Position numbers and translations under genes: made by a program. 64,000 nt of DNA from Candidatus Helarchaeota archaeon (lineage in GTDB: Archaea; Asgardarchaeota; Lokiarchaeia; Helarchaeales; RDOG01): contig JAHPZH010000001.1 of NCBI GenBank assembly GCA_019058315.1, positions 631,536-695,535 on the forward strand. The letters are read 5' to 3'. Below, piece after piece: positions 26,075 to 42,195 of the stretch. Every line of letters starts with the position of its first letter. The stretch's first letter is position 1. Under the pieces are notes generated by a model. That model was given only the letters and a program-made list of their open reading frames with translations, had not been told where the DNA came from and did no database searches.

Positions 26075-26887
26075 TTATATATTAAAAACTGATTTAGGAA
26101 TTACTTCTAAATTCCATTTTGTAATGAATTTATCTCTTTTATGTTTAATCTTAGAGTCATGGATAATGGAAACTGGAATAAGTAAGCACATCATTATGAA
26201 CGGTTGCATTATTAAGCTAAAAGTACCTTGCCATGGAATATTATAAATAATTGTTTTATAAATTTCGATGCCAAGTCCGATTGGGGTGGTAAAACCTATA
26301 AATCCCGCCCAAGCTGAATTATAGTAATGTCCAACCCCTTCAATAGTTGGAGGATATCTTTTATTTCTATATTTCTTTTTCCTAATACCTATAATGCCCG
26401 TGTCTTGTAGAATCCAACTTCCACTTACTACAACACATGAAACTGGTAAGAAAAGCAAATTTAATGATATACTTGGTAATACATTCTGAAAATAGCTCAA
26501 ATGTGTTTCTGTAGGTGTAATAAAGGCTTGAAACATAATTAATAGCGAATAACAGAACAAAGCTGGGATTGCAAGTCTATATAAATAATCGAAATTTGAA
26601 AATTCAGTTCCTGGTTCAATATTTTTATAATCATACTTATTTAATTTAATAATTTTATGTAATGGGAAATAAATAGACGTCATAAAATCTCCGAATAAAA
26701 AATAAACTCCAATTAGATATAAAGGTTGAAATGTTGCAAGTAACAAAAAATCTATTGGTGCAGTACTCGGAATAAATAAAGCTAAATCTTCATTAGGATA
26801 TAGAATAAACATCATAATTTGACCAAATAAGATCATGGAATATCCACAAAGAAATATTAAAAGAATTTTTTTCATACTATTCACCAA
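26075..26887 (-). CDS. Hypothetical integral membrane protein (about 6 TM)
   Basis: Multiple hydrophobic helices. Confidence 0.65.
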   Translation of the reverse strand: MVNSMKKILLIFLCGYSMILFGQIMMFILYPNEDLALFIPSTAPIDFLLLATFQPLYLIGVYFLFGDFMTSIYFPLHKIIKLNKYDYKNIEPGTEFSNFDYLYRLAIPALFCYSLLIMFQAFITPTETHLSYFQNVLPSISLNLLFLPVSCVVVSGSWILQDTGIIGIRKKKYRNKRYPPTIEGVGHYYNSAWAGFIGFTTPIGLGIEIYKTIIYNIPWQGTFSLIMQPFIMMCLLIPVSIIHDSKIKHKRDKFITKWNLEVIPKSVFNI

Positions 26888-26986: not shown

Positions 26987-27799
26987 TTAAATGTTTCCGC
27001 ACGCCTCACAGCCTGAACGTCTTTTTTGAAAAATATTCTGAATTTTAACTTCTTCTTCGAGTGAAATCCTAATTTTTGGAATAATTTTGCCATAATTAAG
27101 GATATACTTAAACCCTTGATCCACTTGTAGACTAGCGACAATATTCATTGTAGATGCTAGACTTGCCCCACAAGGTAATTTAGGTATTTCTTCTTGTTCA
27201 TTTTCAGGTTCGATATAAACCAAAGTATCAGGGCTATAATAACATTCTAAACATGGAGTTTTACCAGGAATTACTGATATAATAATACCTCTTAATGCAT
27301 TTTCACTAGTTCCACCATCAATAATTGGTTTTCCTTGTTGTACTGCATATGCATTGACCTCGATCCTTGCCTCTTCATTATCAAAACAAGTGAAAATGAT
27401 GTTACTTTGACTAATCAAATCTTCCAATTCAGGCCAAGCAATTACATTATTTTTATAAGCCTCAGTCTGAATATGAAATTTTTTATCTACATTTCTTGCG
27501 TTTCGTATCTCTTTTAACTTTTCTGCTAAAACAAAAGCCTTTGATTTATTTATGTCGTTTCTATTATAAACTAATCTATTAAAATTTTCTTCTTCCACAA
27601 CATCTTTGTCTATTATTATTATTTTTCCGATGCCAGTTCTGGCTAAAATTTGGGCTACAATTACTCCTAGCCCACCTGCACCGCATACGAGAGCAGTCTG
27701 TGATAAAAGTTTATTTATATCATATCCCATAAAAATAATTCGTGAGAACATTTTAGGTGAATTCAGGGCCAGATTCGTTCTATCTTCAATTGGGATCAT
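26987..27799 (-). CDS. E1-like activating enzyme (ThiF family), UBA5-like
   Basis: GAGGLG, DKD, NFNRL, CFDNEEAR, GTSENALRG (UBA5 GVSENAVSG), PCLEC, catalytic CGASLASTM (UBA5 CAASLPTTM), KYILNYG (UBA5 KFLLNFG) and terminal CEAC. Confidence 0.9.
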   Translation of the reverse strand: MIPIEDRTNLALNSPKMFSRIIFMGYDINKLLSQTALVCGAGGLGVIVAQILARTGIGKIIIIDKDVVEEENFNRLVYNRNDINKSKAFVLAEKLKEIRNARNVDKKFHIQTEAYKNNVIAWPELEDLISQSNIIFTCFDNEEARIEVNAYAVQQGKPIIDGGTSENALRGIIISVIPGKTPCLECYYSPDTLVYIEPENEQEEIPKLPCGASLASTMNIVASLQVDQGFKYILNYGKIIPKIRISLEEEVKIQNIFQKRRSGCEACGNI

Positions 27800-27808
27800 T
27801 TTATTACC

Positions 27809-28930
27809 TCAACCATATCTCATAAATTTATCTAAAGTTGTATCCGAATCTTTTTTATTATCCTTCCCTTCTAATTTGCTCAATCTTCTCTCAATATCTT
27901 TAATAGTATTATGAATTTTTTCAAATTGTTCATCAATATTTCTTAAACTGCGAGTATGAAGAGAAATTTCTTCTAAATCTCTTCTCAAAGAATTTACACT
28001 TTTTTTTAATTGTTCAAAATTCTCGATTTTCCCCTTTTGTTTTTCGAATTCTTTCTCCTTTAATATTAGTACTTTTCCTACCATCTCTGATAATTTTATC
28101 TTTTTATCAAGCTCTTTATCTCCAGAAAATAATTCTAAAGTTGGAGAAATTTTAAAATCTTTAGTTATTTTTTCATAAAGATCTTCAATTTTTGCATTCG
28201 CAGGCAAAAAAAATCTATAAGCTATATCGAAATTTTGCCCCAATTTAATATCAATTGGAACAAATGGGATAACTTCTATTTCATCAATGTTCAATAGTAT
28301 TTCTTTATCTGGAATTTCTTGATAACCATATATAAAAATGGGTCGCGAGAGACATTTTCCAACTTCATGAGCCGCATTACTAATAAAATTAAATCTTAGA
28401 TCTTGTATTTTAGAATTTTTTGGTCCGCATAACTGGAAAGTTATTGGGATTGTGAAATGATAAATTTTTAATCTTTCTTCTCTATTGAGATTCCTGATTT
28501 CTATTTCAATTTTGTGAACTTTATCATTAACGGCATTAAATGCTACTAATTCATCTGGATTTAAAACATATATTATGAACACATTTCTATTGTGACTATC
28601 ACGAGCATATTTTGTAAATGTCTCTTTATCTGTATTGCTAAAGGTCAGCATTCTTCCTGGATGTTTATGCATATTCCCTAAAATTTCTAAGCCGATCGGT
28701 AATCCCGCTCTAAGCCTAAAATCCTTTGCAAAGTCAGTTTCTACATATGTGGGTCCTTGTTCATAATAATCAAATTCAATTAAATCATAACAATAAGCAG
28801 TTTTGCCACGAATTAACCCAACAATATAAAATCCAACTTCTGAGCTGGTTTTTTGCCCTTGTTTAATTGCGTGCTTATATAAAAAATTGGGTAGAACTAC
28901 CTTTTCAATTATTGGTCCATTTTCATCCAA
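27809..28930 (-). CDS. JAB/MPN+ metalloprotease with probable ubiquitin-like domains and a C-terminal coiled coil
   Basis: EVGF...HKHPGRMLTFSNTD fits E-HxH-x7-S-x2-D. Downstream beta-grasp-like segments (LPANAKIEDLYEKITKDFKI...LELFSGDKELD) and a heptad-rich tail. Confidence 0.85.
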   Translation of the reverse strand: MDENGPIIEKVVLPNFLYKHAIKQGQKTSSEVGFYIVGLIRGKTAYCYDLIEFDYYEQGPTYVETDFAKDFRLRAGLPIGLEILGNMHKHPGRMLTFSNTDKETFTKYARDSHNRNVFIIYVLNPDELVAFNAVNDKVHKIEIEIRNLNREERLKIYHFTIPITFQLCGPKNSKIQDLRFNFISNAAHEVGKCLSRPIFIYGYQEIPDKEILLNIDEIEVIPFVPIDIKLGQNFDIAYRFFLPANAKIEDLYEKITKDFKISPTLELFSGDKELDKKIKLSEMVGKVLILKEKEFEKQKGKIENFEQLKKSVNSLRRDLEEISLHTRSLRNIDEQFEKIHNTIKDIERRLSKLEGKDNKKDSDTTLDKFMRYG

Positions 28931-29059
28931 ATTAATTCCTCTCCTTAAATTGAAAGAAGGTATCGAATATAAATATAAGACTTCGTGAGAAAAATAAATT
29001 TCCTAAATTCAATTACAAATTCTGAATTTGAATAAATATTATTTAATGAGGTAATAGTA

Positions 29060-29269
29060 TTGGCAGAATCGGTTTATAAAGTTATAGAAGTAGTTGGTTC
29101 ATCGGAAAAAAGCTTTGAAGATGCTATACAAAACATAATAGATAAAGCTGCTAAGACTTTACGTGACTTAAGGATTGCAGAAGTTATACAATTTGATGTA
29201 AAAATTGAAGATAATAAAATAGTCTTATATCGAGCTCGAGTACATCTTTCATTTAAAATGGAAGAATAA
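29060..29269 (+). CDS. Dodecin (flavin-binding)
   Basis: SVYKVIEVVGSSEKSFEDAIQN...YRARVHLSFK. Confidence 0.93.
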   Translation: MAESVYKVIEVVGSSEKSFEDAIQNIIDKAAKTLRDLRIAEVIQFDVKIEDNKIVLYRARVHLSFKMEE

Positions 29270-29333
29270 TAAATCTAAAAATCTATTTTAAATCACTTTT
29301 TTTTTAATTTATCTTGTAAAAATTGCTTTGTTA

Positions 29334-30569
29334 TTATTCTTCTTCTTTAATTAATAATATTAATATGAAGACAATTGCCAATAAGATTGTCTGTAATATT
29401 AATGCTGGGAAATAATCTTCACTAATTGGCAATTTCAAATCTTCTAATCCTAAAATGAATAAGATACCACCGATTTGTCCTACCATCATTAAGATTCCAT
29501 TTGAAGTGGCTTCTGGGACCGGTTTTGTGGCATCAACTGCGTATTCTAAACTGACAGGAGAGGCCGAGATCAAACCAAATCCAAAAATAAAACCTAATAA
29601 CCCCAATAGAATAGGATCTTTCGTAAAAGAAATTCCTAATAATGAAATCGTAGCAATTATAACTGAAATATTAAGTAATATTTTACGTTTTTTGTATTTA
29701 TCAGATATAATTGACATAATTAAGCTTCCTATTATGCCTCCTAATAAAATTAGAAGCCCAAATAGACCTGCAAATGCAGAATAATGACCTTTTGGAATCA
29801 CTATTCCTTCGATAAATGTTAATATTGTGTTGAAAATGCCTAATCCTATTAAAAAAGTAATTATTAATATCCAAAAATTAAAATTAGAAAATAATTTCTT
29901 TAGGCCTTCAAACATAAGAACTTTTTCAACGGTCACTTCTCTAGATGGTGGCGTAGGTGGTTTATTTTTTATAAAAATAATATAAATAATTCCTAGACTT
30001 AATGATAGAATTCCATACACATTTAACATATTTTGAAAATTAGGAAAATTATTCAATATTTCTATAAGATTGACACCTCCAACTATAAATGGAGTGATAA
30101 ATAGACCCATAGCAGTGCCTAAAAAAACTGATATTAATGCTATACCAGTTGCAGTGGTTCTTTCTGAAGGTTCAAACCAATTTGCAGATAATTTAGTTAT
30201 GCTATTTAACATAAATGGTTGTCCAATTGCGATACCTATTTGGAACAATAAAACAAGATCATAAGAACCAACTGAAAAAATACGTAAAAATCCACATACT
30301 GCAATAAACAAAGTACCGATTATCGTTCCGATTTTAAAATCATATTTATCTAATATCCAAGAAGCAATAAAAGTAACTGGAATGTAAACTACCATAAATA
30401 CTAAAGATAACAAATAAATTGATAATTCTTCAACTCCGTAGAATAATTGTGCTGCTGTGGTTACTGTTGCAAAACCTATCCATAAGATTTGAAGAACCAT
30501 ATTAACTAGCATAAATAAAATTAGTACAACCCAACGATATCCATAAATTTTTGGTTCAGTTTCAGTCAT
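29334..30569 (-). CDS. MFS transporter (FLVCR/SLC49-like)
   Basis: About 12 TMs; YGYRWVVL, IGQPF, SANWFEPSERTTATG and PVPEATSNG. Confidence 0.9.
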   Translation of the reverse strand: MTETEPKIYGYRWVVLILFMLVNMVLQILWIGFATVTTAAQLFYGVEELSIYLLSLVFMVVYIPVTFIASWILDKYDFKIGTIIGTLFIAVCGFLRIFSVGSYDLVLLFQIGIAIGQPFMLNSITKLSANWFEPSERTTATGIALISVFLGTAMGLFITPFIVGGVNLIEILNNFPNFQNMLNVYGILSLSLGIIYIIFIKNKPPTPPSREVTVEKVLMFEGLKKLFSNFNFWILIITFLIGLGIFNTILTFIEGIVIPKGHYSAFAGLFGLLILLGGIIGSLIMSIISDKYKKRKILLNISVIIATISLLGISFTKDPILLGLLGFIFGFGLISASPVSLEYAVDATKPVPEATSNGILMMVGQIGGILFILGLEDLKLPISEDYFPALILQTILLAIVFILILLIKEEE

Positions 30570-30745
30570 AATAACCTCTCATTAAAGTAATTTATAAAAA
30601 TTGTTATTTACAAATTTTTTAAAGATTAGTAAAATCACTTTTCTTATTTTTCTTTAGTGTAAATTTCTTTTTAAAGATCCAGTTATCAATTCTTTTGAAA
30701 GCATAAATGTGAATAAAATATCTAATAAATTACGGAGCAAACGGA

Positions 30746-31204
30746 ATGTCATATAAATGTGAAATTAAAGAAAAGTCCACACAACCTACACTAATAATCC
30801 GGAAAAAAACATCTGTACAGAACTTATCTGAACTATTAGGAAAATCATATGGCGAAATTATTATATATATCATGGAACTAGGGGAACAACCTTCAGGACC
30901 TCCCTATGTTGCATATTATAATACGGATATGCTAAATTTAGAAATTGAAATTGGTTTTCCGGTTTCTAAAAAGTTTTCTGATAAAGGTGATATTAAATCA
31001 AGTGAGATTCCTGGAGGAAAATTCGCAAATTGTCTCTATATTGGTCCTTATAATGAAATTGCAGCAGCTTATAATGCTCTTACAGAGTGGATTGAAAATA
31101 ATGGATATGAATCAACAGGAGTTGCATATGAAATATATCTAAATGATCCAAGAGAAACCCCACCTCATGATTTAAAAACTCAAATTATGTTTCCGCTTAA
31201 ATAA
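30746..31204 (+). CDS. GyrI-like small-molecule-binding protein
   Basis: EIGFPV, IPGGK, GPYNEI..AY..L and YEIYLNDP motifs. Confidence 0.9.
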   Translation: MSYKCEIKEKSTQPTLIIRKKTSVQNLSELLGKSYGEIIIYIMELGEQPSGPPYVAYYNTDMLNLEIEIGFPVSKKFSDKGDIKSSEIPGGKFANCLYIGPYNEIAAAYNALTEWIENNGYESTGVAYEIYLNDPRETPPHDLKTQIMFPLK

Positions 31205-31301
31205 TTAAGATTAAAAAAAATTGGGTTTAGTACTAATATGAACTATTGTTGAATAGAATAAATAAAACTCTTTTTTATTTTTTTAATATTCAGTAAATAA
31301 A

Positions 31302-31790
31302 TTATTTTACCACTAACACTGGACATTTTGCATGGTTTACAACTTCATTACTAACGCTACCTAGGAAAAATCTCTTAAGTCCACTTAGACCTCTGCTTCC
31401 TATAACTATAAGGTCCATTTTCTCATCTTCAGCAATTTGAATGATTGTATCTGCTGGTCTTCCTTCCATTAACTTGGGTTCAATTTCTAGATCAGGTTTT
31501 TTTTCTCTTGCCTTTTCGACAGCTTCAGCTAAAAGTTTTGCAGTAGAATCCATCAATTCCTTTGAATAAGTTTCAAGAATTTCTCCAGGAACAGGTGTCC
31601 CAATCATTCCTAGGGGTGTTGTGGCGTGATGGGATACACTTAAAACGGTAACTTTTGCTCCACACTTTTCTGCTAAATCAAGTGTAAAGTCCAAAGTTTC
31701 CTGAGCGTGTTTTGAACCATCAAATGCTACCAAAATTTTTTTCATCATTCTTTCACCTCCATATATATAAAAAAAGAATAATTTTCTCAT
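31302..31790 (-). CDS. Universal stress protein (UspA family); likely start at MMKK near 31748
   Basis: KILVAFDGS, DLIVIGSRG and LGSVSNEVVNHAKCPVLVVK motifs. Confidence 0.95.
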   Translation of the reverse strand: MRKLFFFYIYGGERMMKKILVAFDGSKHAQETLDFTLDLAEKCGAKVTVLSVSHHATTPLGMIGTPVPGEILETYSKELMDSTAKLLAEAVEKAREKKPDLEIEPKLMEGRPADTIIQIAEDEKMDLIVIGSRGLSGLKRFFLGSVSNEVVNHAKCPVLVVK

Positions 31791-32120
31791 ATAAAAATCC
31801 TTTTATTAAAATAAGATTTAAAATAGTTAATTTTCCTCAACCTATTATAAAAAAAGAGCGTTTAATTTTATTAAAAAGAGCCTTATTCATTGAAATAGAC
31901 TTCATATCTTCTCGCTAAAGTAAATAAAATAGTTATTTGAATATACTCCCTTTTTTCTTAATCTGATAACCTTAAAAATCATAATTTACTTAGGAATTTC
32001 GAGAAAAATATTTTCGAAAAAATTCACTTATCATACTCGCAATAATAAGTAAAAAAAGATAATTTGAATTAAATAAAAGAGAATATTATAGTATAAATTA
32101 ATTAAAATGAGGTTATTTAT

Positions 32121-32387
32121 ATGAGTGAAGAGGTTGTAACTTTAACATTTGAGAATGCCGCAACTAAAAAGGAATGGAAAGTCCCAGCTGTTTCTTCAGA
32201 GTTGATGAGGGATTATGTAGGTCAAGCAGCAAAACAATTATTTAAACCAATCCCTGCTAGAGTAGGGATTGCAACTAAAGATGGTCAAATCGTTCAAGAT
32301 TGGGGCGATAAATCAGTAAGTACAGTTTTAGAACTATATCGAACTAATTCCTTCGTTTTGGGAAGCCCAGATCAACTTGGTTTCTAA
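32121..32387 (+). CDS. UFM1-like ubiquitin-fold modifier
   Basis: 88 aa. AAKQLFKPIPARVGIATKDG aligns by eye with UFM1 AAEEFKVPAATSAIITNDG; C-terminal PDQLG-F with UFM1 PRDRVG-SC. Confidence 0.72.
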   Translation: MSEEVVTLTFENAATKKEWKVPAVSSELMRDYVGQAAKQLFKPIPARVGIATKDGQIVQDWGDKSVSTVLELYRTNSFVLGSPDQLGF

Positions 32388-32407
32388 TTTTTCTTATTGG
32401 TGTAGGC

Positions 32408-32956
32408 ATGGGTGAAGATAAGGACTGGCTAGATACTTCTAAATACATTGATAGCATTAGTATCGATTTTGATAGGGATTATCTCTCTAAGCATTTTCTA
32501 GATTTATACCAATTAAAAATAAAATCTCAAGTTATCATCAAAGAGCTACCAAAGTTTAAAAATACAATGAACGTAAGGTCAACCAATTGGCAAAAGAGAG
32601 TTGAAGAAGAATACGAAATTTTCAATATATTAAAGGGAAGATATATTGAACGCATTGGTTTTGCAGTTTTCAATGATTTAAAAGCAGTAGATTCCAACTC
32701 AAGAAAATGGACAGCGATGTATTATCGATCAAAACAATCTAGAGGGATTAATGTAAACATTACTCTAAGCTTGACGTATCCAAGAACTTTTCCTACCGCT
32801 TTGAGAAATGTTGGTGATCGACACTTAACACCTGGTGCAAAATGCTTTGGTGATTTAAAAACACGTTGGGCAAGAGATGGTAGTATGGGTATTTCGCACT
32901 TTTTAGTTATTATCGGCTATTATTTTGCAATAGAAAAACAAAGCCTTCGAGTTTGA
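32408..32956 (+). CDS. UFC1-like E2 conjugating enzyme (copy 1)
   Basis: IKELPKFK...WQKRVEEEY, TYPRTFP and KCFGDLKTRWARDGSMGISHFL, versus UFC1 SEIPVLK...WVQRLKEEY, TYPTTAP and [24 protein letters not shown]. Confidence 0.8.
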   Translation: MGEDKDWLDTSKYIDSISIDFDRDYLSKHFLDLYQLKIKSQVIIKELPKFKNTMNVRSTNWQKRVEEEYEIFNILKGRYIERIGFAVFNDLKAVDSNSRKWTAMYYRSKQSRGINVNITLSLTYPRTFPTALRNVGDRHLTPGAKCFGDLKTRWARDGSMGISHFLVIIGYYFAIEKQSLRV

Positions 32957-32963
32957 AAAATAA

Positions 32964-33494
32964 ATGCCAATAGATATAAAATTATTTGATGTAGGAAGTT
33001 CTATCGGTTATTGGGATTTTATCCGTGATGTTCCTTTATTTAAAACAGTTGCGACTACAAGTAGTAGTAAATGGAAAGAAAGGTTGAAAGAAGAATATGA
33101 AAAATTAAATTATCTGGCAAAATTAACTCAAAAAAATATAATTTTTGACAAAATAGAAGAAGATCGCTCAAATAAAAAAATATTTAACTGTGAAGGACAC
33201 TTTCCTTCTGGAAGAAAAATAACTTTTAATATTCGATTGCCTGTTAGATATCCAAATTCCATTCCTATTGCCGAAAATTTCTATATCCGTGATTGGTATG
33301 TAGGACTTGACAAATTTAAAGCTGCATGTTTTGGTAAAATAAAAGAAAAATGGCGAAAAGATGGTCGTATGGGTTTGGTTCACTTTTTGGTAATGCTTGC
33401 ACATTATACAACTTTTGCTGCATTTAGTATAAATACACCAAAAGTATCAAATTCAAAAAAGAAAAAGAGGTTAAAACAAAAAAGGCTTGGTTAA
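32964..33494 (+). CDS. UFC1-like E2 conjugating enzyme (copy 2)
   Basis: RDVPLFKT...WKERLKEEY, LPVRYPNSIP and ACFGKIKEKWRKDGRMGLVHFL; basic C-terminal tail. Confidence 0.8.
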   Translation: MPIDIKLFDVGSSIGYWDFIRDVPLFKTVATTSSSKWKERLKEEYEKLNYLAKLTQKNIIFDKIEEDRSNKKIFNCEGHFPSGRKITFNIRLPVRYPNSIPIAENFYIRDWYVGLDKFKAACFGKIKEKWRKDGRMGLVHFLVMLAHYTTFAAFSINTPKVSNSKKKKRLKQKRLG

Positions 33495-33497
33495 AAA

Positions 33498-35120
33498 ATG
33501 GAAGATGAAGATAAATATAAAATAGAAAAAATTGGAACGCCTGCAGGAGATGCTGCCTCTGCACAAAGCGTAGTAGATGCAATAAATTATATCTTATTGA
33601 AATTAAAAGAATTAGATGATTATTATACTGATAAACTAAAATTTCTTGATATTTCCTCCCTAGATCCGATGATAGAAGGAATACATGATAAGATCAATGA
33701 CTTAAAAATAACCCAAGACTTACTTACCCAAAAAATTTCCGAATTAGAAAAGGGAGAAAATATAAATAATCAAGTTTCCAATCAAACTTCAGTAATTACT
33801 CCAGATGCTGATGAGTCTGAAATAATCAGCGATTCACAAGAAATAAAAGAAATGGAAAGCAAAAAGACAAAAACCATCGATAAAAGTAATTTAGAGGATT
33901 TACTTAAGACAATTTTGAATCTACAAGGTGATTTAAGTCTCCTAAGTACATCTAAATTACCAGAAATTTATTCGATTTTACCCTATGAAGAAATTAAAAA
34001 ATCCCTTGAAGAGCTAGGTGGTTATATTGATCAAAAGGATCTTTTAGGATTAACGTTCAGTTTTTTAACATTACCTGATACGGAAATTCCAAAAAATTAT
34101 AAAATTATATTATATGGACCTGAAGGAAACGGTAAAACTTCCATAGTTCATGCATTAACAAAAAAATATGGGTATTCATTAATTCTAATAGATTTTCCAA
34201 AATTAATTACATATTCAGAGAATAAACAAATTCAGGAATTAATTTCTTTTTTCAAAAGTATTAAAGAAAATCAAGAGATCAAGCCTGCAATCTTATTTCT
34301 AGATAATCTTGAAATGATCACTGGAAAGCTATCTTCAAAATACATAATAAAAACCTTAATTCTTGAGATGGAAAAAATAAACCTAGCAGACCATAGAATT
34401 TTAATTGTGGCTGCTACAAGAGATTTAGAACAAATTGGAGAAGAAGTTTTAAAAAGTTTTGACGATTTTGTAGAATTTTCTAATCCTGATGATTTAGAAA
34501 AAAGTAAAATATTAAGAACACTTTTAGACGAAGTTAAATTAGAAAATGGATTAGATATTGATGAACTAACAAATAATTTGGCATTTGATATTGATACTAA
34601 AGACTTTTCATGTTTAGATTTAGAAAATATTTTAAAAATTGTAAAATTTTTATTGATAAAGGAAAGTAGAAATTACGCTATCAAAGCTGATTTTGATAAA
34701 GCTTTACAAAAAATAAAAAGTAGAAATAAGTTAATAAAACAAGAAAAATCAACAAAAACAGAACAAATTTCTGAAAAAGTAGAAAAAATTCAGAGCTTAG
34801 AGGATGAAATCACAAATTTAAAAAATATGATGTGGACATCTAAAGGAATTCTCAAACATAGTTTAAGGCTCGCATTATCTGAGAATTTTGATTTTGTACA
34901 TAGATTATTTAATTTATTTAAAGGTAATAATGCACCATTCACGATCAAAGAAGCAAGCAAAATTCTAGGAATTTCAATTACTGAAGCAAAGAAGGTTCTA
35001 AATAAAGATTCATTTCAAATAATTTTTCCCAAGATCATGAATACGTATCAACCCGCATTTGATCAGGTATTATTTGATGAAATCTCGTTGGAAATTGGCT
35101 TTGGGCTTCAAGGTGATTAA
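33498..35120 (+). CDS. AAA+ ATPase (classic clade, degenerate) with an N-terminal coiled coil and C-terminal HTH-like region
   Basis: Walker A YGPEGNGKT, Walker B ILFLDNLE and degenerate SRH AATRDLEQIGEEVLKSFD. Confidence 0.8.
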   Translation: MEDEDKYKIEKIGTPAGDAASAQSVVDAINYILLKLKELDDYYTDKLKFLDISSLDPMIEGIHDKINDLKITQDLLTQKISELEKGENINNQVSNQTSVITPDADESEIISDSQEIKEMESKKTKTIDKSNLEDLLKTILNLQGDLSLLSTSKLPEIYSILPYEEIKKSLEELGGYIDQKDLLGLTFSFLTLPDTEIPKNYKIILYGPEGNGKTSIVHALTKKYGYSLILIDFPKLITYSENKQIQELISFFKSIKENQEIKPAILFLDNLEMITGKLSSKYIIKTLILEMEKINLADHRILIVAATRDLEQIGEEVLKSFDDFVEFSNPDDLEKSKILRTLLDEVKLENGLDIDELTNNLAFDIDTKDFSCLDLENILKIVKFLLIKESRNYAIKADFDKALQKIKSRNKLIKQEKSTKTEQISEKVEKIQSLEDEITNLKNMMWTSKGILKHSLRLALSENFDFVHRLFNLFKGNNAPFTIKEASKILGISITEAKKVLNKDSFQIIFPKIMNTYQPAFDQVLFDEISLEIGFGLQGD

Positions 35121-35185
35121 AAATAAATGAAATAGCCAATAAGCACAAGTCTCCTGAAATGATTTTTGCTAGGAAGTGAAATCCC

Positions 35186-38100
35186 ATTTCAAATTTAAAA
35201 AAAGTCATAATAACAAATTTTAAAACCTTTTTGGGTCGCCACGAGTTAGAATTCCCAAAAAAAGGACTTAGTGTTCTAATTGGTCCTTGTGGTTCTGGAA
35301 AATCTAATGTGTTAGATGCTATTCTTTTTGCAATGGGAATTATTGATGAACGCCGGAAAAATACAGTATTAGAGGTTATTACAGAGGAGCATGAAACACA
35401 TAAACAGTTGGCAAATGCTGCAGAAGTAGAATTAATATTTGAAAATTTAGATGGTGTTCATTCTGAGAATGGGGGAAAATTAAATATTTCAAGGCAATTG
35501 AGAATCCCTGCAAGTGGTCAATTTTATAGCATCTATAAAATGAATGGTAATGAAAGTACAAGATCTGAAATTTTACAGACTTTAAACAAATTTGGAATTC
35601 AACCTGATGGATATAATATTATAAAACAAGGTGAAATTTCAACCCGAATGAAAGATACTCCTGAAAGTAGGAAACAGTTAATAGAAATTGTCTCAGGATT
35701 ATCAGAATTTGATCCTATGATTACAGACGCGGAAAGCAAAATCGATAATTCTCGTAACAATTTAAAACAAATCGATCTTTTACTGAAAGAATCTAAACGC
35801 CAATTATCTGAATTAGAAAAAGAGAAAGAAAGAGCTTTAGAATATAAAGAAATGGAGTCTAAATTAAGTCAATTAAAGGGATTAAAAATACAATATAGAA
35901 AATTTCAATATTTGGAAGATATTAAAAATTTAAAATTGGAAATTGGAAAAATTAAAAAAATTATTCAAGAAGTTGAATCAGAATCTGATAATCTCTTTCA
36001 AAATCTCAAAAAAAATGGGCAAAAAATTGAAGAATTTAGGCAAAAAATTACTGAACTTGAGAAAAATCGCAGTTCTCTTACTGGACATGCTAAATCTATT
36101 GACGATCAAATTCGAGAAATTGAACTAAAAATAAAACAAAACGAAGAAAAGCGTAAATATCAAAAGAAAGATAGAAAGGAAGCACTTCTAAGAGAAATTC
36201 AAAAATTGGAATCAAAAAGACTAGAAATTTCTTCAAAAATGGAAGAAAATGTTAAGAAAAACAATAAAATACAAGGAAATATTCGAGAAGTTCGAGATGT
36301 ATTAGAAAAATATAATAAAGAGCTTCCCGAATTACAAAGTAAGAATAAAGCTATTATATTGAAAATTAGTAACCTGAAAGATGAAATTAATAAACAAACC
36401 AGATTGAAAGATAAAATCGACAAAGAAGTTAGTGAATTACGAATTCGAAAGGATCAATCAGACTCTAAATTCGAAGAAGTCTCAGTAGATTTAGAAAGAA
36501 AAAACAGAAAATTAACTCAAATTAATTCAGAAATCAGTAATATGGCGACAAGAAAGAAAAATTATATTCAAACTATTAACTCAATTACGAAATTTTTTCA
36601 GGAGAGTTTAATAGAATTAAAAGAATTAGAGAAAAAACAACCCATTTTAGACCGAGATCTTAAAGATATGAAAGAATCATTGAAAAAATACGAAGAAGAA
36701 ATGAAAAGTTTGAAACCTCGTTACTCAAGCGATATCAAAGTTATTCTCGAAGGACGAGATAGTGGTAAACTCCCAGGATTAATTGGGACAATATTAGAAT
36801 TAATTAATATAAAAAATATTAATCCAAATTATGCAAAAGCTATTGAAGCAGCTATTAGTGATTATTTTGAACATCTTGTAGTTGAAAATTTTAATGCTTC
36901 AAAAAAAGTAATTGAATATGTAAAAGAAAAAGAATTAGGAAAAACAACTATATATCTTTTAGATAAGATTAAAGGGTGGGATGAAAAAAAACTTCCAATT
37001 TCCACTGGTATTATAGATAAAATGATTAATCTTGTCAAATTTGAGGAAAAATATCGTCAATTATTATCTTTCGTGTTTAAAGATACTGTATTGGCTCAAG
37101 ATTTAGAGACTGCATATAAAATCCATGAAGATTTTAGAGTTGTTACCTTGGAGGGTGAAGTTATTGAACGTAAAGGATATATTATAACCCAAGGAAGATT
37201 TGAACCCAAATTTCTCCTATTATCTGAATATTATAAGGTAAAAATTAAAGATCTTGAAGAAAGAATCCTAAATAAAAGTAAAGAATTGGAAGATATTACC
37301 AGAAAAATAAACAAAATATATGTTAAAAGAGAAAAAGAAGTAAAAAGAAAAGATGAATTAAATAGGTCTATAGGTCAAATTGATGGTAAACAAGAAGAAA
37401 TTATTAATACAAAAGCTGAGCTGGAACAAGATATTGAGGATTTAAGGCATCAAATAAATATTTTAAATGATAATATTGTTGATTATCAAGTAGAAATACA
37501 AAATAAACAAATGGACTTAGCAAATGCATTTAGTGGATTAGACGCTTTGAAATCAGAAAAAGAAAAACTAGATAAAGAATTAAAAACGACAGAATATGGT
37601 CCCATAGAGAAAAAAATAAGAGAAAATAATAATAAATTAAAAAAATTACGAAAAGATGTTAGAGATCTCGAGAAAAAAAGAAACAATTATCGAAATCAAT
37701 TAGTTGATGTCGATTCAAGCATTAAGATTTATAGAGAACGCTATAATTATTCAATTGCAAAAATAGATGAGTTAGATAATGAAAAAGATTCACTAGAAAA
37801 GCATATGGAAGAATTACTTTCAAAAATGGAATCGCAAAATACTGAAATCGCTGAAATTTACTTAGAAATACAAGAATTGGAGAGGGGACAGAAGAAATTA
37901 CAAGATGAAATGGAACTAAAAAAGGAGGAACAGGGTTTTAAAAATAATCAGATTTCCAAGTTAAATGAAAAAATTCATAGTTTAAATAACACAATTGCCA
38001 GAAAAGAAGCATTTATTGAAGAATCCGAAAGCAAGTTAGCCGAGTTAGGAATTGAGTATGATGAAATTCAAAAAATCGATATTGAAAACGTAAATGCTGA

Positions 38101-38758
38101 TATTTATTCATTGGAAAACCAAATGAAATTATTTGGATTAGTCGATCCTAATGCACCAATTAAGTATGAGCGGGAAAATTTAAAATATGAAGAAAGAATT
38201 ACAAAAAAAGAATTATATACAAGAGAGTTGGAAGAGGCTATGAATACATTTTCTGATCTAATTGAACAAAAGAAAACTAAATTCCTTGAAACTCTTGAAA
38301 AAATCAATATTCACTTAAAAAAGGTTTTTAATTACTTCTATAAAGAAGGTACAGCGAAGTTAGTTCCTCAAATTATTAAAGATCCGTTGAATTCAGGAAT
38401 AGAAATCGAAGTAGATTTGGGTTCTGGTATAATAAATAATATCAAAAGCCTTTCAGGTGGGGAGACTAGCTTAGTAGCTATCTCCGTCATCTTGGCTATT
38501 CAAGAATATGAAGGAAGATCTGCACCATTCTATTTCTTGGATGAATTGGATGCACACCTTGATAACACTAAGGGCGAAAAATTGGCCCACCTTATTGCAA
38601 AAATGGCCAAAAATCATCAATATATAATTGTCACCCCAAAAAACAAATATTTAGCAAAATTAGCTAATAGAGTTTTTGCTTTATCAAAAAACGAAAAAGG
38701 ATTTAGTTCCCTACAGTACATTTCCCAAAAAGATTTTGAAAAAGTGGAGGCAACATGA
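35186..38758 (+). CDS. smc: SMC chromosome segregation protein; start extended upstream of the called TTG at 35231 to a probable ATT at 35186
   Basis: In-frame upstream LKKVIITNFKTF, Walker A GPCGSGKSN, Q-loop IIKQG, long coiled coils, hinge (GLIGTILELI...VTLEGE), signature LSGGE and Walker B/D-loop FLDELDAHLD. Confidence 0.93.
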   Translation: MSNLKKVIITNFKTFLGRHELEFPKKGLSVLIGPCGSGKSNVLDAILFAMGIIDERRKNTVLEVITEEHETHKQLANAAEVELIFENLDGVHSENGGKLNISRQLRIPASGQFYSIYKMNGNESTRSEILQTLNKFGIQPDGYNIIKQGEISTRMKDTPESRKQLIEIVSGLSEFDPMITDAESKIDNSRNNLKQIDLLLKESKRQLSELEKEKERALEYKEMESKLSQLKGLKIQYRKFQYLEDIKNLKLEIGKIKKIIQEVESESDNLFQNLKKNGQKIEEFRQKITELEKNRSSLTGHAKSIDDQIREIELKIKQNEEKRKYQKKDRKEALLREIQKLESKRLEISSKMEENVKKNNKIQGNIREVRDVLEKYNKELPELQSKNKAIILKISNLKDEINKQTRLKDKIDKEVSELRIRKDQSDSKFEEVSVDLERKNRKLTQINSEISNMATRKKNYIQTINSITKFFQESLIELKELEKKQPILDRDLKDMKESLKKYEEEMKSLKPRYSSDIKVILEGRDSGKLPGLIGTILELINIKNINPNYAKAIEAAISDYFEHLVVENFNASKKVIEYVKEKELGKTTIYLLDKIKGWDEKKLPISTGIIDKMINLVKFEEKYRQLLSFVFKDTVLAQDLETAYKIHEDFRVVTLEGEVIERKGYIITQGRFEPKFLLLSEYYKVKIKDLEERILNKSKELEDITRKINKIYVKREKEVKRKDELNRSIGQIDGKQEEIINTKAELEQDIEDLRHQINILNDNIVDYQVEIQNKQMDLANAFSGLDALKSEKEKLDKELKTTEYGPIEKKIRENNNKLKKLRKDVRDLEKKRNNYRNQLVDVDSSIKIYRERYNYSIAKIDELDNEKDSLEKHMEELLSKMESQNTEIAEIYLEIQELERGQKKLQDEMELKKEEQGFKNNQISKLNEKIHSLNNTIARKEAFIEESESKLAELGIEYDEIQKIDIENVNADIYSLENQMKLFGLVDPNAPIKYERENLKYEERITKKELYTRELEEAMNTFSDLIEQKKTKFLETLEKINIHLKKVFNYFYKEGTAKLVPQIIKDPLNSGIEIEVDLGSGIINNIKSLSGGETSLVAISVILAIQEYEGRSAPFYFLDELDAHLDNTKGEKLAHLIAKMAKNHQYIIVTPKNKYLAKLANRVFALSKNEKGFSSLQYISQKDFEKVEAT

Positions 38759-39417
38759 GTAAAAATCAGAAAATAACTGGTAAAAAAGTCAAACAAATTA
38801 TAAGATTATGTCAAAGTGCTTTAAAAGGAAAAACTAAATTAGAAGATGCTGATTTATTAAGCTTTCTGCCTACCCTGAGAACCAGGATCCAGAAAGGAAG
38901 TTTTGATTTTACCTCAATAAAAGCTTTTTCCTTAAGTTCGCATGTCTTAGACCTTAAGACAAGAAATTTATTAGGGGAATTCGTTAAAAATGAGGTTAAA
39001 TCTAAAAATAATCTGTTTGAAATACTTGATAATGAAGATTCATTAGAATCGGTTATTTTGTATCCTATTAACAGTTTTAAAGATTTCTTCATAGAAGAAG
39101 ACATTATTAAGGCATATAATGAACTCTTAATATTGCGTAGAAATAGACCTGATTATTCGGTTTTTGGCAAAGAAGGTATATGTGTTCAGAAAGAAAGTGA
39201 ATATGAGGAAGTAGATAGTTTTGAACAAGATAAAATAAATTTTTTCATGAGGCTGAATAAATTAAATAAAAAAGTTATCGATTTTAATTCTTTACAGACT
39301 AATTGGGAAGATGCTGTTATTAATCTCTTATATTTAGTTCACCTCTCACAAGAGGGTAAAATTAATTTGGAACAAAAATTACCTGATAATAAAATCTTTA
39401 TTAGATTAAGAAATTAA
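38755..39417 (+). CDS. scpA: Divergent kleisin ScpA-like protein
   Basis: Overlaps the smc stop; C-terminal winged helix VINLLYLVHLSQEGKINLEQ...IFI typical of kleisins. Confidence 0.72.
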   Translation: MSKNQKITGKKVKQIIRLCQSALKGKTKLEDADLLSFLPTLRTRIQKGSFDFTSIKAFSLSSHVLDLKTRNLLGEFVKNEVKSKNNLFEILDNEDSLESVILYPINSFKDFFIEEDIIKAYNELLILRRNRPDYSVFGKEGICVQKESEYEEVDSFEQDKINFFMRLNKLNKKVIDFNSLQTNWEDAVINLLYLVHLSQEGKINLEQKLPDNKIFIRLRN

Positions 39418-39418
39418 G

Positions 39419-39910
39419 GTGAGAAAATTTAATCATCAAAAAGCTCTTGAGGCTCTATTAATTCTAAGAGGAGAAACAGGAATTTCTGTAAATGATATTT
39501 ATAAAATTACTAAAATTAACGATATTGAATATAGCTTTTATTTATTAAATTTAATTGAAAAATCTTTAAATGATTCTTCCCTTTTTTTAAAATATAACCC
39601 TGCCAAAAAACGGTATTTCTTAGCTCTACCTAATGAATATTATAGTTTTTTATCCGAAAAAGATTTAATAAAATCACCTTTATCAAAAAGTGTTTTAGCT
39701 ACACTTGCCTGCATTATAATAGAATTGGAAGAAGGGGTAGTTACTGTTGAAAAATTAAAACAACTTAGAGGAAAAATGGTAATAAATCATTTAAAATCAT
39801 TGGAAAATGAAGGTTTAATTACAATATCTGAAGAAAATATTCTCCCCACTGATAAATTATTAACAAAAATTAACATAAATCAAGTAATCAAAGGAATAAA
39901 AGAAATATAA
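39419..39910 (+). CDS. scpB: Divergent ScpB-like (kite) protein
   Basis: KALEALL, LSKSVLATLACI and QLRG....HLKSLENEGLI; two winged-helix domains; follows scpA by 1 nt. Confidence 0.75.
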   Translation: MRKFNHQKALEALLILRGETGISVNDIYKITKINDIEYSFYLLNLIEKSLNDSSLFLKYNPAKKRYFLALPNEYYSFLSEKDLIKSPLSKSVLATLACIIIELEEGVVTVEKLKQLRGKMVINHLKSLENEGLITISEENILPTDKLLTKININQVIKGIKEI

Positions 39911-40383: not shown

Positions 40384-42195
40384 ATGAAAAAGCAAACCAC
40401 AGCAATATTATTGATATGTATTATTGCTGGAGCTTCTGGATTTACTTTTGCATACATTTACATGACACAACAAGAAGGAATGGATCTTACATTGTTATTT
40501 TTGGTTATGATACCTCCAAAGATCAATACAGAGCCAGTTGTATTTATCTCTAAATGGGACACAACAAAAACAAGTTCGGGTTCAAGCGCAGTCGATCAGG
40601 TTAAATTGCCTTTGGTATCATTAGGAGATTATGATTTTACGGTTTATTGGGGCGATGGTACTCAAAATACAATTACAGCTTGGAATCAAACCGAAGTAAC
40701 GCACACTTATATTCCGCAAGGTGAGTATACTATTAAAATAAAAGGGAAACTAATCGGTTGGAGATTTAATAATGGGGGAGATCGTTTAAAACTACTTGAA
40801 ATTAGTAGATGGGGTTCCATTCAATTAGGAGATTCAAGCGATTATTTCTACGGATGCAATAACTTGAATCTTACGGCTATTGATAATTTAAATTTAACCG
40901 GGACGAGTAGTCTCCAAAATGCTTTTGGTGCTTGCAATAATCTCGGTAGCACTGGAAATATGAACGGCTGGGACGTCTCCAGCGTCACCGACATGAGCGG
41001 AATGTTCGTTGATGCAGGTTATTTTAATCAAAACATCAGTAGCTGGAATGTCTCTAGCGTCACCGACATGAGTGCGATGTTCTGGGGTACAAGTTCATTT
41101 AATCAAAATATTGGTAGCTGGAATGTCTCCAGCGTTATCGACATGAGCGGGATGTTCTATGGTGCGAGTTCATTCAATCAAGACATTGGTGGCTGGAACG
41201 TCTCCAACGTCATAAACATGGCATCGATGTTCTGTACTGCGAGTTCGTTTAATCAAGACATTGGCAGTTGGGACGTTTCCAGCGTTATTGACATGAACTA
41301 TATGTTCTCTGCTGCGAGTTCATTTGCTCAAGACATCAGTAGTTGGGATGTCTCCAGCGTCACCGACATGAGCGGAATGTTTTTGGGTGCTAGTTGGTTT
41401 AATTCACCTATCGGCGGCTGGAATGTGTCCAGCGTCATAAACATGAATGCAATGTTCCAAGATGCGAGTGTGTTTAATGAAGACATCGGCGGCTGGAATG
41501 TCTCCAGCGTGACAAACATGGGATCGATGTTCCATTATGCGAGTTTTTTTGATCAAGATATTGGCAGTTGGAACGTCTCCAGCGTCACCGACATGAGCGG
41601 GATGTTCTATGGTGCGAGTTCGTTTAATCAAGACATCGGAGGCTGGAATGTCTCCAGCATCATAAACATGGGATCGATGTTTTTTGAAGCATTTTCATTT
41701 AATAAAGACATTGGCGGCTGGAATGTCTCCAGCGTCACAACCATGAATGGGATGTTCTATAATGCAATTTTATTTAATCAAAATATTAGCGGCTGGAATG
41801 TCTCCAGCGTCACAACCATGGCATCGATGTTTGCTTATGCAAGTTCTTTTAATCAATCCATTGGCAGCTGGAATGTCTCTAGCGTCATATTCATGACTGG
41901 GATGTTCAGTCAAGCGACCTCATTTAATCAGAACATCAGTAGTTGGAACATCTCCAGCGTCATAGATATGAGTAATATGTTCAATGGAGTAACTTTATCA
42001 ACAGCAAACTACGATAGTTTACTAATCGGGTGGTCGCAACTACCAGTGCAAAATAATGTACCGTTTCATGCAGGTGGTTCTACATACAGTGCAGCGCCGT
42101 CGCCCGCTGCTACTGGAAGAGAACACCTCACTAACTCCACTAGCTCCATCCCCCCTGGTCATAATTGGCAAATTACTGACGGTGGACCAATATAG
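40384..42195 (+). CDS. BspA/DUF285 repeat surface protein with an N-terminal membrane anchor
   Basis: Hydrophobic N-terminus, PKD-like VYWGDG...HTY domain and 14 repeats [20 protein letters not shown]. Confidence 0.9.
40966..41985 (+). repeat. Intragenic 75-bp tandem repeat (14 units)
   Basis: Units such as ggctggaatgtctccagcgtcaccgacatgagcgggatgttc recur at exact 75-bp spacing from 40966 to 41941. Confidence 0.9.

Follow-up and report, generated by a model that had tools for sequence, protein, structure and literature searches.

The window, i.e. the whole stretch of 64,000 nucleotides that was analysed, comes from a Helarchaeota-type Asgard archaeon and contains a locus for a ubiquitin-like conjugation system that is probably related by descent to core eukaryotic UFMylation. 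A UFM1-like modifier (Ubl), a UBA5-like E1, two UFC1-like E2 proteins (E2a and E2b) and a JAMM metalloprotease (JAB) are encoded together with an AAA ATPase and a divergent set of SMC, kleisin and kite proteins, and all nine genes were recovered at the positions given in the initial annotation (Table 1).

Table 1. Genes of the conjugation cassette and the adjoining SMC block, with positions in the window
Gene product	Position	Strand	Remarks
UBA5-like E1	26987..27799	(-)	270 aa, adenylation domain only
JAMM/MPN+ metalloprotease (JAB)	27809..28930	(-)	373 aa
UFM1-like modifier precursor (Ubl)	32121..32387	(+)	88 aa
UFC1-like E2a (paralogue a)	32408..32956	(+)	182 aa
UFC1-like E2b (paralogue b)	32964..33494	(+)	176 aa
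AAA ATPase	33498..35120	(+)	540 aa, coiled coil N-terminal
Divergent second SMC	35186..38758	(+)	start probably ATT 35186; Pfam SMC_N + SMC_hinge
Kleisin, ScpA-like	38755..39417	(+)	220 aa; 4-nt overlap with SMC end
ScpB-like kite subunit	39419..39910	(+)	163 aa; Pfam SMC_ScpB

The gaps of 20, 7, 3, -4 and 1 nt given for the series from Ubl to ScpB are exact. The figure of ~65 nt between the AAA and SMC genes holds only with an SMC start at ATT 35186. This ATT is preceded by aggaagtga and followed by the conserved N-terminal sequence LKKVIITNFKTF, and the earliest ATG/GTG/TTG is TTG 35231. The genes for Ubl, E2a and E2b run into the AAA-SMC block at a gap of 3 nt and therefore probably reside on one transcript with it in this genome. 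E1 and JAB are paired on the strand opposite to the Ubl gene, at a distance of 3.2 kb from it. Four unrelated genes (a dodecin-size ORF, MFS, GyrI-like and Usp) are situated in between, and close relatives of the window have other genes at this place.

The E1 had been described as UBA5-type as opposed to generic or sulfur-transfer ThiF/MoeB, and the comparison with solved proteins bears this out. All motifs quoted for it (FSRIIFMG, NFNRL, GTSENALRG, CGASLASTM and KYILNYG) are present and the protein matches Pfam ThiF at 1e-43. As a single sequence it finds UBA5 as the best solved relative (5e-26, 94.8 bits), followed by MccB (1.5e-17) and ThiF (4e-14), while with the family profile A6 the UBA5 match stands at 1.4e-41 (145.7 bits) versus 2e-28 (102.5 bits) for ThiF, 1e-27 (100 bits) for MoeB and 67.7 bits for Uba4. 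The lead of UBA5 over the next solved relative thus amounts to ~28 bits for the single sequence and ~43 bits for the profile. P0146, the nearest prokaryotic protein outside the E1 family, behaves in the opposite way (MoeB 178 bits, UBA5 80 bits); judged from this pattern it is a true MoeB and serves as a control for the assignment. The family itself is sharply delimited, with members at E <= 1e-54 and a subsequent fall to 1e-23. Its invariant C210 aligns with Cys250 of UBA5 (in 'gvCaaslpttm' of UBA5), so that, as in UBA5, the catalytic cysteine is located within the adenylation domain. C183 and C186 are also invariant and align with the CxxC of UBA5, and C264 is nearly invariant, the window protein reading GCEAC. 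Unlike UBA5, the archaeal E1 ends at residue 270, just past the second cysteine pair (GCEACGNI); the C-terminal UFM1-interacting and UFC1-binding sequences of UBA5 are absent and the match to UBA5 covers the adenylation domain only.

The 88-aa protein had been proposed to resemble UFM1 and to end in a single glycine plus phenylalanine, and both statements proved right. The C-terminus reads ...PDQLG-F (QLGF), and the AlphaFold2 model is a beta-grasp fold (pLDDT 91.8) whose lead Foldseek matches are UFM1 (6h77_Q and 5ia7; TM 0.74/0.83, rmsd 1.9 A). As a group, the UFM1 entries reach TM 0.7-0.83, with ubiquitin behind at about 0.6. Across the 11 members of the Ubl family, D-x-L-G is invariant at the end and is followed by 0-4 residues. 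Like UFM1, the archaeal modifier therefore has a single terminal glycine masked by a short extension. When the Ubl profile was compared with the PDB at E up to 10, ten of the eleven matches were UFM1, at a non-significant E of about 1, and the alignment to the UFM1 chains reaches the mature Gly83. Pfam Ufm1 (PF03671) gave no match for the window protein, 0.061 for one relative and none in a scan of the genome.

E2a and E2b are 31% identical and carry the motifs originally listed for them (W..R..EEY, YP and C...W..DG.MG..HFL). The presumed active-site cysteine lies in AKCFG in E2a and in AACFG in E2b, where it is Cys122. It is invariant in the E2 family of 30 members, in which W..R..EE and YP..P are invariant or nearly so, and it is nearly invariant in a wider set of 73. 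C122 of E2b aligns with Cys116 of UFC1 ('gkiCl'), and the downstream W...G-I/L-A-H helix is shared as well. E2b matches Pfam UFC1 (PF08694) at 1.1e-4 with 22.3 bits, under the gathering score of 25 bits, and E2a yields no match to this model. The profile A3, built from the 30 sequences, aligns with UFC1 over nearly the full length at 2.4e-14 (Leishmania) and ~2-4e-12 (human), and the next E2 that is not UFC1 follows at 2.7e-4. At such E-values, the resemblance of the E1 to UBA5 and of the E2s to UFC1 greatly exceeds what chance would produce. An AlphaFold2 model of E2b (pLDDT 76.7) points in the same direction: its best 28 Foldseek matches are all UFC1 (TM 0.55-0.65) versus TM ~0.44 for other E2s. 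The E2 proteins accordingly fall inside the UBC fold with UFC1 as nearest relative, as first suggested. When 1.84 billion representatives were searched exhaustively, only 75 clusters of the family were found, and 37 of the 73 scanned match Pfam UFC1 at E <= 0.001 (best 6.6e-85). Unlike UFC1, the archaeal E2s occur in two or three paralogues and have no TAK motif; HPN is likewise absent from both, E2b reading GLDKFKAAC and E2a LTPGAKC, whereas eukaryotic matches read GKTAKMYRGGKIC. E2b has a basic C-terminal tail, KKKKRLKQKRLG, and a basic tail is kept in E2b-type proteins. In a quick E2 tree, E2a resides in a well-supported subclade of its own, in which the genes of its orthologues adjoin that for Ubl. 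Eukaryotic UFC1 forms one clade outside every Asgard subclade in this tree, a branching that favours neither direction of descent; an ancestral state of UFMylation, which the initial annotation saw in the locus, does not follow from it.

As noted before, the gene for the JAMM protease adjoins that for the E1, 9 nt upstream of it, and the protein displays the motif E31...H88-K-H90...S98..D101, with these five residues invariant in 14 orthologues. It further has a ubiquitin-like segment in its interior and ends in a coiled-coil tail. JAB has no match in Pfam, and its profile matches are weak, AfJAMM coming first (0.0075) and AMSH and Rpn11 after; positions 231-290 of the profile match ubiquitin variants at 0.014. 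In relatives, the JAB gene always adjoins the E1 gene.

The E2 family was found in 17 of 400 Asgard genomes. Genomes G119, G123, G124 and G125 feature Ubl-E2a-JAB-E1-E2b as a single compact operon. A JAB-E1-E2 arrangement is present in Njordarchaeales-type and related genomes, and in four of the five such loci that were inspected Ubl lies just past E2. The JAMM protease is therefore genetically linked to the Ubl, E1 and E2 genes across Asgard lineages. Of the complete pathway that had been claimed, Ubl, E1, E2s and JAMM protease are present, and neither an E3 nor a substrate was recognised: there is no E3 gene within the locus and no linked UFL1-DDRGK1-CDK5RAP3 ligase, although UFL1-like proteins are encoded elsewhere in this genome. 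A homologue of UFSP-type proteases was not found in the genome.

Established homology, active-site residues and gene linkage allow a series of chemical steps to be proposed. Phe88 would be trimmed off the UFM1-like precursor so that Gly87 is exposed, the linked JAMM protease being the most likely enzyme for this step. The E1 would adenylate Gly87 and then hold the tag as a thioester on Cys210, from where it could move to the invariant cysteines of E2a and E2b and onward to lysines of target proteins. The JAMM enzyme probably also detaches the tag. Possibly, the basic tail of E2b assists in tagging the SMC complex or chromatin.

UFM1, UBA5 and UFC1 of eukaryotic UFMylation are the best solved relatives, by profile or by fold, of the archaeal Ubl, E1 and E2s, respectively. 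The archaeal system differs in that its protease is a JAMM metalloenzyme and not a UFSP cysteine protease and in the arrangement of its genes as a prokaryotic operon. Beta-grasp modifiers, ThiF-type E1s and JAMM proteases are likewise combined in the prokaryotic operons of the Caldiarchaeum-type Ub/E1/E2/RING/Rpn11 system, of Asgard ubiquitin clusters and of SAMP-UbaA-JAMM. In those archaeal systems, however, the modifiers are GG-ended ubiquitin or SAMP proteins and the E2s are canonical UBC proteins or absent, while here modifier, E1 and E2 all belong to the UFM1 branch. Among prokaryotes, Ufm1-like proteins have been reported from Asgard archaea alone, where nine clades have them (Nat Microbiol 2026, PMC12962969; bioRxiv 2024.07.03.601958). 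The UFM1-like part is hence already published, and the 88-aa Ubl probably belongs to the family described there. UBA5, UFC1, JAMM protease, operon and SMC do not occur in the text of PMC12962969; compared with that report, conserved gene order here ties the modifier to its enzymes. Our literature search found no report of an E1/E2/JAB operon or of its adjacency to SMC genes. In a phylogenomic survey, UFC1 appeared as restricted to eukaryotes and UBA5 as derived from bacteria (EMBO J 2023), and the tag UFM1 alone has hitherto been traced to Asgard archaea. A cluster of Ubl, UBA5-like and UFC1-like genes would mean that the E1-E2-tag core as a whole arose earlier than eukaryotes and would reveal a version that operates with neither an E1 tail nor UFSP proteases and may also dispense with the UFL1 ligase. 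Its five small proteins make up a set that could be reconstituted in vitro.

The adjoining AAA-SMC-ScpA-ScpB block is a second, divergent SMC set in a genome that has a more canonical SMC locus elsewhere. The AAA ATPase (Pfam AAA 1.5e-17) has an intact Walker A motif and a Walker B motif with DN/EN instead of DE, a substitution kept in six orthologues; the nearest NCBIfam models, PAN, CdvC and Cdc48, all remain far under cut-off. The AAA gene always has this SMC paralogue after it. The SMC reaches 562.8 bits with TIGR02169, whereas the genome's other SMC (C11:659145-662588) reaches 661.6 bits, to which it is 25% identical; beside that other SMC, on contig C11, two stronger ScpB genes are located. 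For the 220-aa protein, Pfam and NCBIfam gave no match. The best two PDB matches of its profile are ScpA C-terminal domains (4i99_C 0.043, 5xns_C 0.059), ScpA is also, as no more than a lead, the label of the closest named clusters in the ESM Atlas, and its gene is placed between those for SMC and ScpB, all of which is weakly suggestive of a ScpA-like kleisin. ScpB exceeds the cut-off of Pfam SMC_ScpB (1.1e-10, 41.7 bits) and matches TIGR00281 at 4e-9. The make-up of Smc-ScpAB is thus found, one operon encoding SMC head and hinge, a tentatively assigned kleisin and the kite ScpB, with SMC, ScpA-like protein and ScpB all missing the NCBIfam equivalog cut-offs.

A functional tie between cassette and SMC block was originally assumed; what is seen is a conserved adjacency. 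Three families of one order have the SMC set beside the cassette, in varying orientations and with SMCs that are only 33-37% identical; other classes contain the cassette without this SMC. The adjacency is thus confined to a single order and is absent from G124 and the other classes. Among 161 genomes of the class, five have an AAA orthologue, and each of these five also has the E2 system (5 of 6 E2-positive genomes versus 0 of 155 others), but this co-occurrence is not independent evidence because it essentially represents one clade. Cassette and block may just as well be independent modules that are neighbours by chance in one order (Helarchaeota-type), here maybe on one transcript, with no action of either on the other, a reading to which we give an even chance. 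It agrees with G119, Njordarchaeales-type and other families, which have the cassette but not this SMC, with the operon in G124, which lies beside a histone-fold gene and other unrelated neighbours without AAA or SMC, with the otherwise freely changing gene order around the cassette and with the restriction of co-occurrence to one clade. Chance is less easily reconciled with an adjacency kept across three families despite differing orientations and such low SMC identity, with the mere 3 nt between E2b and AAA genes, with a basic E2b tail that would suit DNA binding, and with G128, which lacks E2, this SMC paralogue and the AAA orthologue together.

Functional coupling, e.g. by tagging of the SMC complex or chromatin, is accordingly a tentative reading and the somewhat less probable one. 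More speculative still, and rather unlikely as a whole, is a specific version for Helarchaeota-type Asgard archaea, in which a dedicated second SMC complex either receives the UFM1-like tag or recognises it. The basic tail of E2b would tether the enzyme to DNA, SMC, kleisin, kite or chromatin proteins would be modified, and the hydrolysis-impaired AAA protein could act as adaptor or extractor of tagged subunits. The whole would then be a forerunner, in prokaryotes, of SMC5/6 with its ligases and would hint at an ancient role of UFM1 in DNA-damage signalling. SMC5/6 itself carries SUMO and ubiquitin ligases (Nse2/Nse1). These eukaryotic ligases are subunits of the complex, whereas the link here consists of neighbouring genes alone. 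As for archaeal double SMC complexes, two SMCs are present in this genome as well; unlike in these and in SMC5/6, the SMC block here begins with an additional gene, that for the pseudo-AAA ATPase. If the second SMC complex were a target, archaea would have a link between protein tagging and chromosome organisation that echoes SMC5/6.

Bacterial E1/E2/JAB/Ubl operons serve in phage defence, and an antiviral or anti-plasmid role had also been considered; the locus would then be an island combining a Bil/Bub/CBASS-Cap2-like Ubl module with a Wadjet/Lamassu-like SMC. The patchy spread of the cassette (17/400 genomes) would fit, and PADLOC Cap2 E1-E2 models match the E1 at 5e-16 and LmuB and JetC models match the SMC weakly. 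These matches are limited to the generic E1 part and the SMC; none was obtained with PADLOC for the E2s, Ubl, JAB, ScpA or ScpB. The Cap2 models reach 56.8 bits as compared with 94.8 (single sequence) and 145.7 (profile) for UBA5, and the 562.8 bits of the SMC with chromosomal SMC models lie much above any defence model. The locus is flanked by housekeeping genes (RadA, HisA) that are syntenic in relatives, base composition is uniform, and a nuclease or other effector gene was not recognised in the locus. We therefore consider a defence role improbable and the earlier suggestion unsupported.

Least probable is a sulfur-carrier pair, with E1 and small protein acting like ThiF/MoeB and ThiS/MoaD or in dual use (SAMP/Urm1) and the E2-like proteins as non-catalytic adaptors: archaeal SAMPs do combine sulfur carriage and conjugation, and ThiF/MoeB/UbaA models give matches to the E1 of 1e-29 to 1e-20, each below its cut-off, but the E1 is specifically UBA5-like and has no rhodanese domain, sulfur-biosynthesis genes are not linked, the E2 cysteine is conserved throughout the family, and the JAMM protease and C-terminally extended Ubl precursor point to conjugation and processing.

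The window (G000:C3:631536-695535) belongs to a 5.8-Mb genome of 12 contigs and about 30% G+C, and the genes of the locus predict a real UFM1-type system of E1, E2, tag and protease in an Asgard archaeon; judged by sequence and structure models, this system shares homology with the UFMylation core. Close homologues of the window proteins carry the names Helarchaeota, Promethearchaeota, Lokiarchaeota, Jord-, Frey- and Njordarchaeales, which places the genome among the Asgard archaea. When re-derived from the window sequence, the open reading frames, motifs and intergenic distances of the initial annotation were all borne out with two qualifications, which concern the start of SMC and the split of the conjugation cassette. 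The Ubl-E2a-E2b-AAA-SMC-ScpA-ScpB run, where Ubl is the UFM1-like modifier, is on the plus strand (32121-39910). E1 and the JAB protease are set apart from it on the minus strand (26987-28930), with four unrelated genes (a dodecin-size ORF and genes for MFS, GyrI-like and Usp proteins) in between. In the SMC frame, no ATG, GTG or TTG is found ahead of residue 16 of the conserved N-terminus (window 35171-35231), and an ATT codon is the likely start (see table).

The locus is flanked by housekeeping genes (RadA, HisA) in an arrangement that is syntenic in relatives. This speaks against an antiviral or anti-plasmid defence island, a reading that we consider quite improbable also because PADLOC models match generic parts only, with weaker scores than those of UBA5 and of the chromosomal SMC models. 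In the relatives, HisA directly adjoins E1 without the membrane protein gene listed in the table, and the DUF285-repeat gene is missing from the corresponding place. A run search for RNA data returned sediment metagenome DNA only and no RNA.

Additional features in and around the locus, with strand or position
Feature	Location	Strand or position	Remarks
SMC start	window, ATT 35186	+	Shine-Dalgarno-like site aggaagtga before, conserved LKKVIITNFKTF after
Six-repeat DUF285 protein, 603 aa	window 40384-42195	3' of ScpB	"Mycoplasma protein of unknown function", E 8e-199
Multi-pass membrane protein, 270 aa	window 26075-26887	between HisA and E1	no family match
Third UFC1-like E2, 398 aa	L003:1492-2688 (G000 C11 ~449.9-451.1 kb)	-	N-terminal HEAT-repeat fusion, HEAT_2 1.5e-31
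Putative archaeal histone fold (by eye), 70 aa	L057:1327-1539 (G124:C204)	convergent with E2b	at end of Ubl-E2a-JAB-E1-E2b operon

The assignment of the E1 to the UBA5 type rather than to generic ThiF/MoeB proteins was upheld. Pfam returns ThiF only, while in a comparison with all solved chains five UBA5 sequences score best (5e-26), followed by MccB (1.5e-17) and ThiF/MoeB (4e-14, 7e-13). With a profile of 23 family members the preference for UBA5 (145.7 bits, 1.4e-41) over ThiF (102.5 bits) and MoeB (100 bits) is clear; the alignment covers the whole adenylation domain and pairs the invariant Cys210 with Cys250 of UBA5, and C183/C186 with its CxxC motif. The family is sharply delimited, with E-values falling from 1e-54 to 1e-23, and its nearest outside neighbour, at 32% identity, is the control P0146, a genuine MoeB that prefers the MoeB model (178 bits) to that of UBA5 (80 bits). 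The tail of UBA5 binds UFM1 and UFC1. As the archaeal protein ends at residue 270, it lacks this tail.

E2a and E2b had been described as UFC1-type enzymes, and profile and fold comparisons agree. As a single sequence E2b reaches 22.3 bits against Pfam UFC1 (cut-off 25) and 0.01 against UFC1 chains, and a profile of 30 diverse members retrieves UFC1 over positions 17-147 of 163, with E-values of 2.4e-14 for the Leishmania protein and about 2-4e-12 for the human one, compared to 2.7e-4 for the best non-UFC1 E2. The alignment takes in Cys116 and the subsequent W...G-I/L-A-H helix. The AlphaFold2 model of E2b (pLDDT 76.7) has UFC1 structures as all of its 28 top Foldseek matches (TM 0.55-0.65), other E2s lying near 0.44. 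E2a and E2b have neither TAK, the motif typical of UFC1, nor HPN, that of other E2s. The family was detected in 17 of 400 Asgard genomes by family search, and when 1.84 billion representatives were scanned exhaustively with HMMER, it made up only 75 clusters; 37 of the 73 clusters scanned match Pfam UFC1 at E ≤0.001 (best 6.6e-85). For a quick maximum-likelihood tree, domains of less than 100 profile positions (except for the UBC outgroup P0077) and exact duplicates were excluded. It contains one 22-row clade (SH-aLRT 98) outside every Asgard subclade, consisting of 20 rows with the eukaryotic UFC1 motif and two unlabelled by the motif filter, and gives no direction of descent between eukaryotic UFC1 and the Asgard E2s. 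E2a and E2b fall into two distinct, well-supported subclades, each together with the relatives' orthologues, and their duplication is thus old. The HEAT-fused third E2 of the genome retains the cysteine (FACFGKLESRW). Metagenomic family members (P0015, P0031-P0034 and others) also bear additional domains; the extra Pfam domains among the 73 scanned matches, i.e. Ras/Roc/Arf GTPase (two cases), HEAT, Roadblock/LC7 and RWD, suggest varied recruitment modules.

For the 88-aa Ubl, single-sequence searches of PDB and Pfam yielded no match, and a Pfam Ufm1 scan of the genome found none at E up to 10. The model is a confident beta-grasp fold (pLDDT 91.8) for which Foldseek lists UFM1 entries first (TM 0.74/0.83, rmsd 1.9 Å), with ubiquitin, ISG15 and Hub1 near TM 0.6. 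Relatives gathered by gene position end without exception in D-x-L-G followed by zero to four residues, namely none in G123-G125, F in the window protein and N, L, DDF or FIHY in others. Neither Lys nor Arg occurs close to the ...SPDQLG end of the window protein. A family profile matched eleven PDB chains at E up to 10, ten of them UFM1 chains aligned to the mature Gly83, at a non-significant E of about 1. The tails of E2b (..KRLG) and JAB (..MRYG) were discarded as conjugatable ends of general occurrence, both ends being unconserved.

The protease next to E1 (373 aa) possesses the full JAMM motif expected from the initial annotation, with E31, H88, H90, S98 and D101 invariant in 14 orthologues. 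It has no Pfam match; weak profile matches point to AfJAMM, AMSH and Rpn11. A segment inside the protein matches ubiquitin variants. A sulfur-carrier pair of E1 and small protein is a very improbable reading, since the invariant E2 cysteine, the JAMM protease and the masked glycine favour conjugation over sulfur transfer.

The system departs from eukaryotic UFMylation in protease, E1 tail, E2 motif and E2 copy number. Scanning the genome for Peptidase_C78 (UFSP) revealed no homologue, the sole match (E 0.068, 14.2 bits) staying far under the cut-off, and DDRGK matches were all sub-threshold and also arose in control genomes. Two UFL1-like proteins are encoded elsewhere (G000 C11:225662 and C1:161036). 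UFM1, UFC1 and UFSP2 have been reported as restricted to eukaryotes, UBA5 as present in prokaryotes, and UFL1 and DDRGK1 as dating from Asgard archaea (Picchianti et al., EMBO J 2023). Ufm1 homologues were later noted in nine Asgard clades (bioRxiv 2024.07.03.601958; Nat Microbiol 2026, PMC12962969), in a paper that mentions neither UBA5 nor UFC1. A literature search on UFC1 or UBA5 with Asgard or archaea, with most subscription journals outside its scope, brought up nothing further of relevance.

Twenty loci from other Asgard genomes were compared with the window proteins by sequence search. A single compact Ubl-E2a-JAB-E1-E2b operon occurs in G119, from another family of the phylum, and in G123, G124 and G125, while Njordarchaeales-type and related small genomes have JAB-E1-E2, with Ubl just past E2 in four of five loci examined. 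As this compact order recurs, Ubl, E2, JAB and E1 form a conserved unit of which the window cassette is a split version, a layout common to close relatives (E2 identity 75-78%).

In this order the cassette does have a second SMC complex as its neighbour, and this association is potentially the newest part of the locus. Two SMC operons per genome have been described for TACK and Asgard archaea. Here, the second SMC (C11:659145-662588) is 25% identical to that of the window. The window set is the divergent one, because the C11 protein scores higher with chromosomal SMC models (661.6 versus 562.8 bits) and is adjoined by two strong ScpB genes. The window ScpB is above the Pfam cut-off, and the putative kleisin is assigned from its gene position and from weak matches to C-terminal domains of ScpA. 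The AAA protein heading the block keeps Walker A (GPEGNGKT) and has LFLDN as Walker B (DN/EN in all six orthologues) and a variable sensor 1; this conserved ATPase probably binds nucleotide but is impaired in hydrolysing it. A complex prediction for ScpA, two ScpB and E2b scored 0.00, a "no answer" that is evidence neither way. In close relatives, an extra gene for 193-208 aa lies between AAA and SMC (L005:12166-12747, L006:12159-12785), with weak winged-helix matches (EAP30/Vps36 3e-4, RPA_C 1e-3); it is missing from the window, G126 and G127.

Of the functional tie to SMC originally put forward, the adjacency stood: G125, G126 and G127 have AAA-SMC(-ScpA-ScpB) next to the cassette, with varying orientations and SMC identities of only 33-37%. 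The cassette occurs elsewhere without the window-type SMC, and G124 lacks an AAA orthologue and has the histone-fold-like gene in the AAA-SMC position. In G123, AAA-SMC stands alone on its own short contig, and G128 (same family, 94% complete) is without E2, AAA and the window-type SMC paralogue. AAA orthologues occur in five of 161 genomes of the class, all five E2-positive. The co-occurrence is suggestive, but the positives are essentially one clade. For this reason, and because the cassette is found without window-type SMC, we regard functional coupling to the second SMC complex as possible rather than probable. In G119 (G119:C116:7772-11286), an AAA-like gene (1e-23 to the window AAA), unlinked to the Ubl operon of that genome, is located some 2 kb away from an ORF of 851 aa, which matches the SMC C-terminal head (2.5e-12). 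The whole genomes of G126 and G127 (93% complete) each yielded one SMC, the cassette-linked paralogue, which may be their sole SMC.
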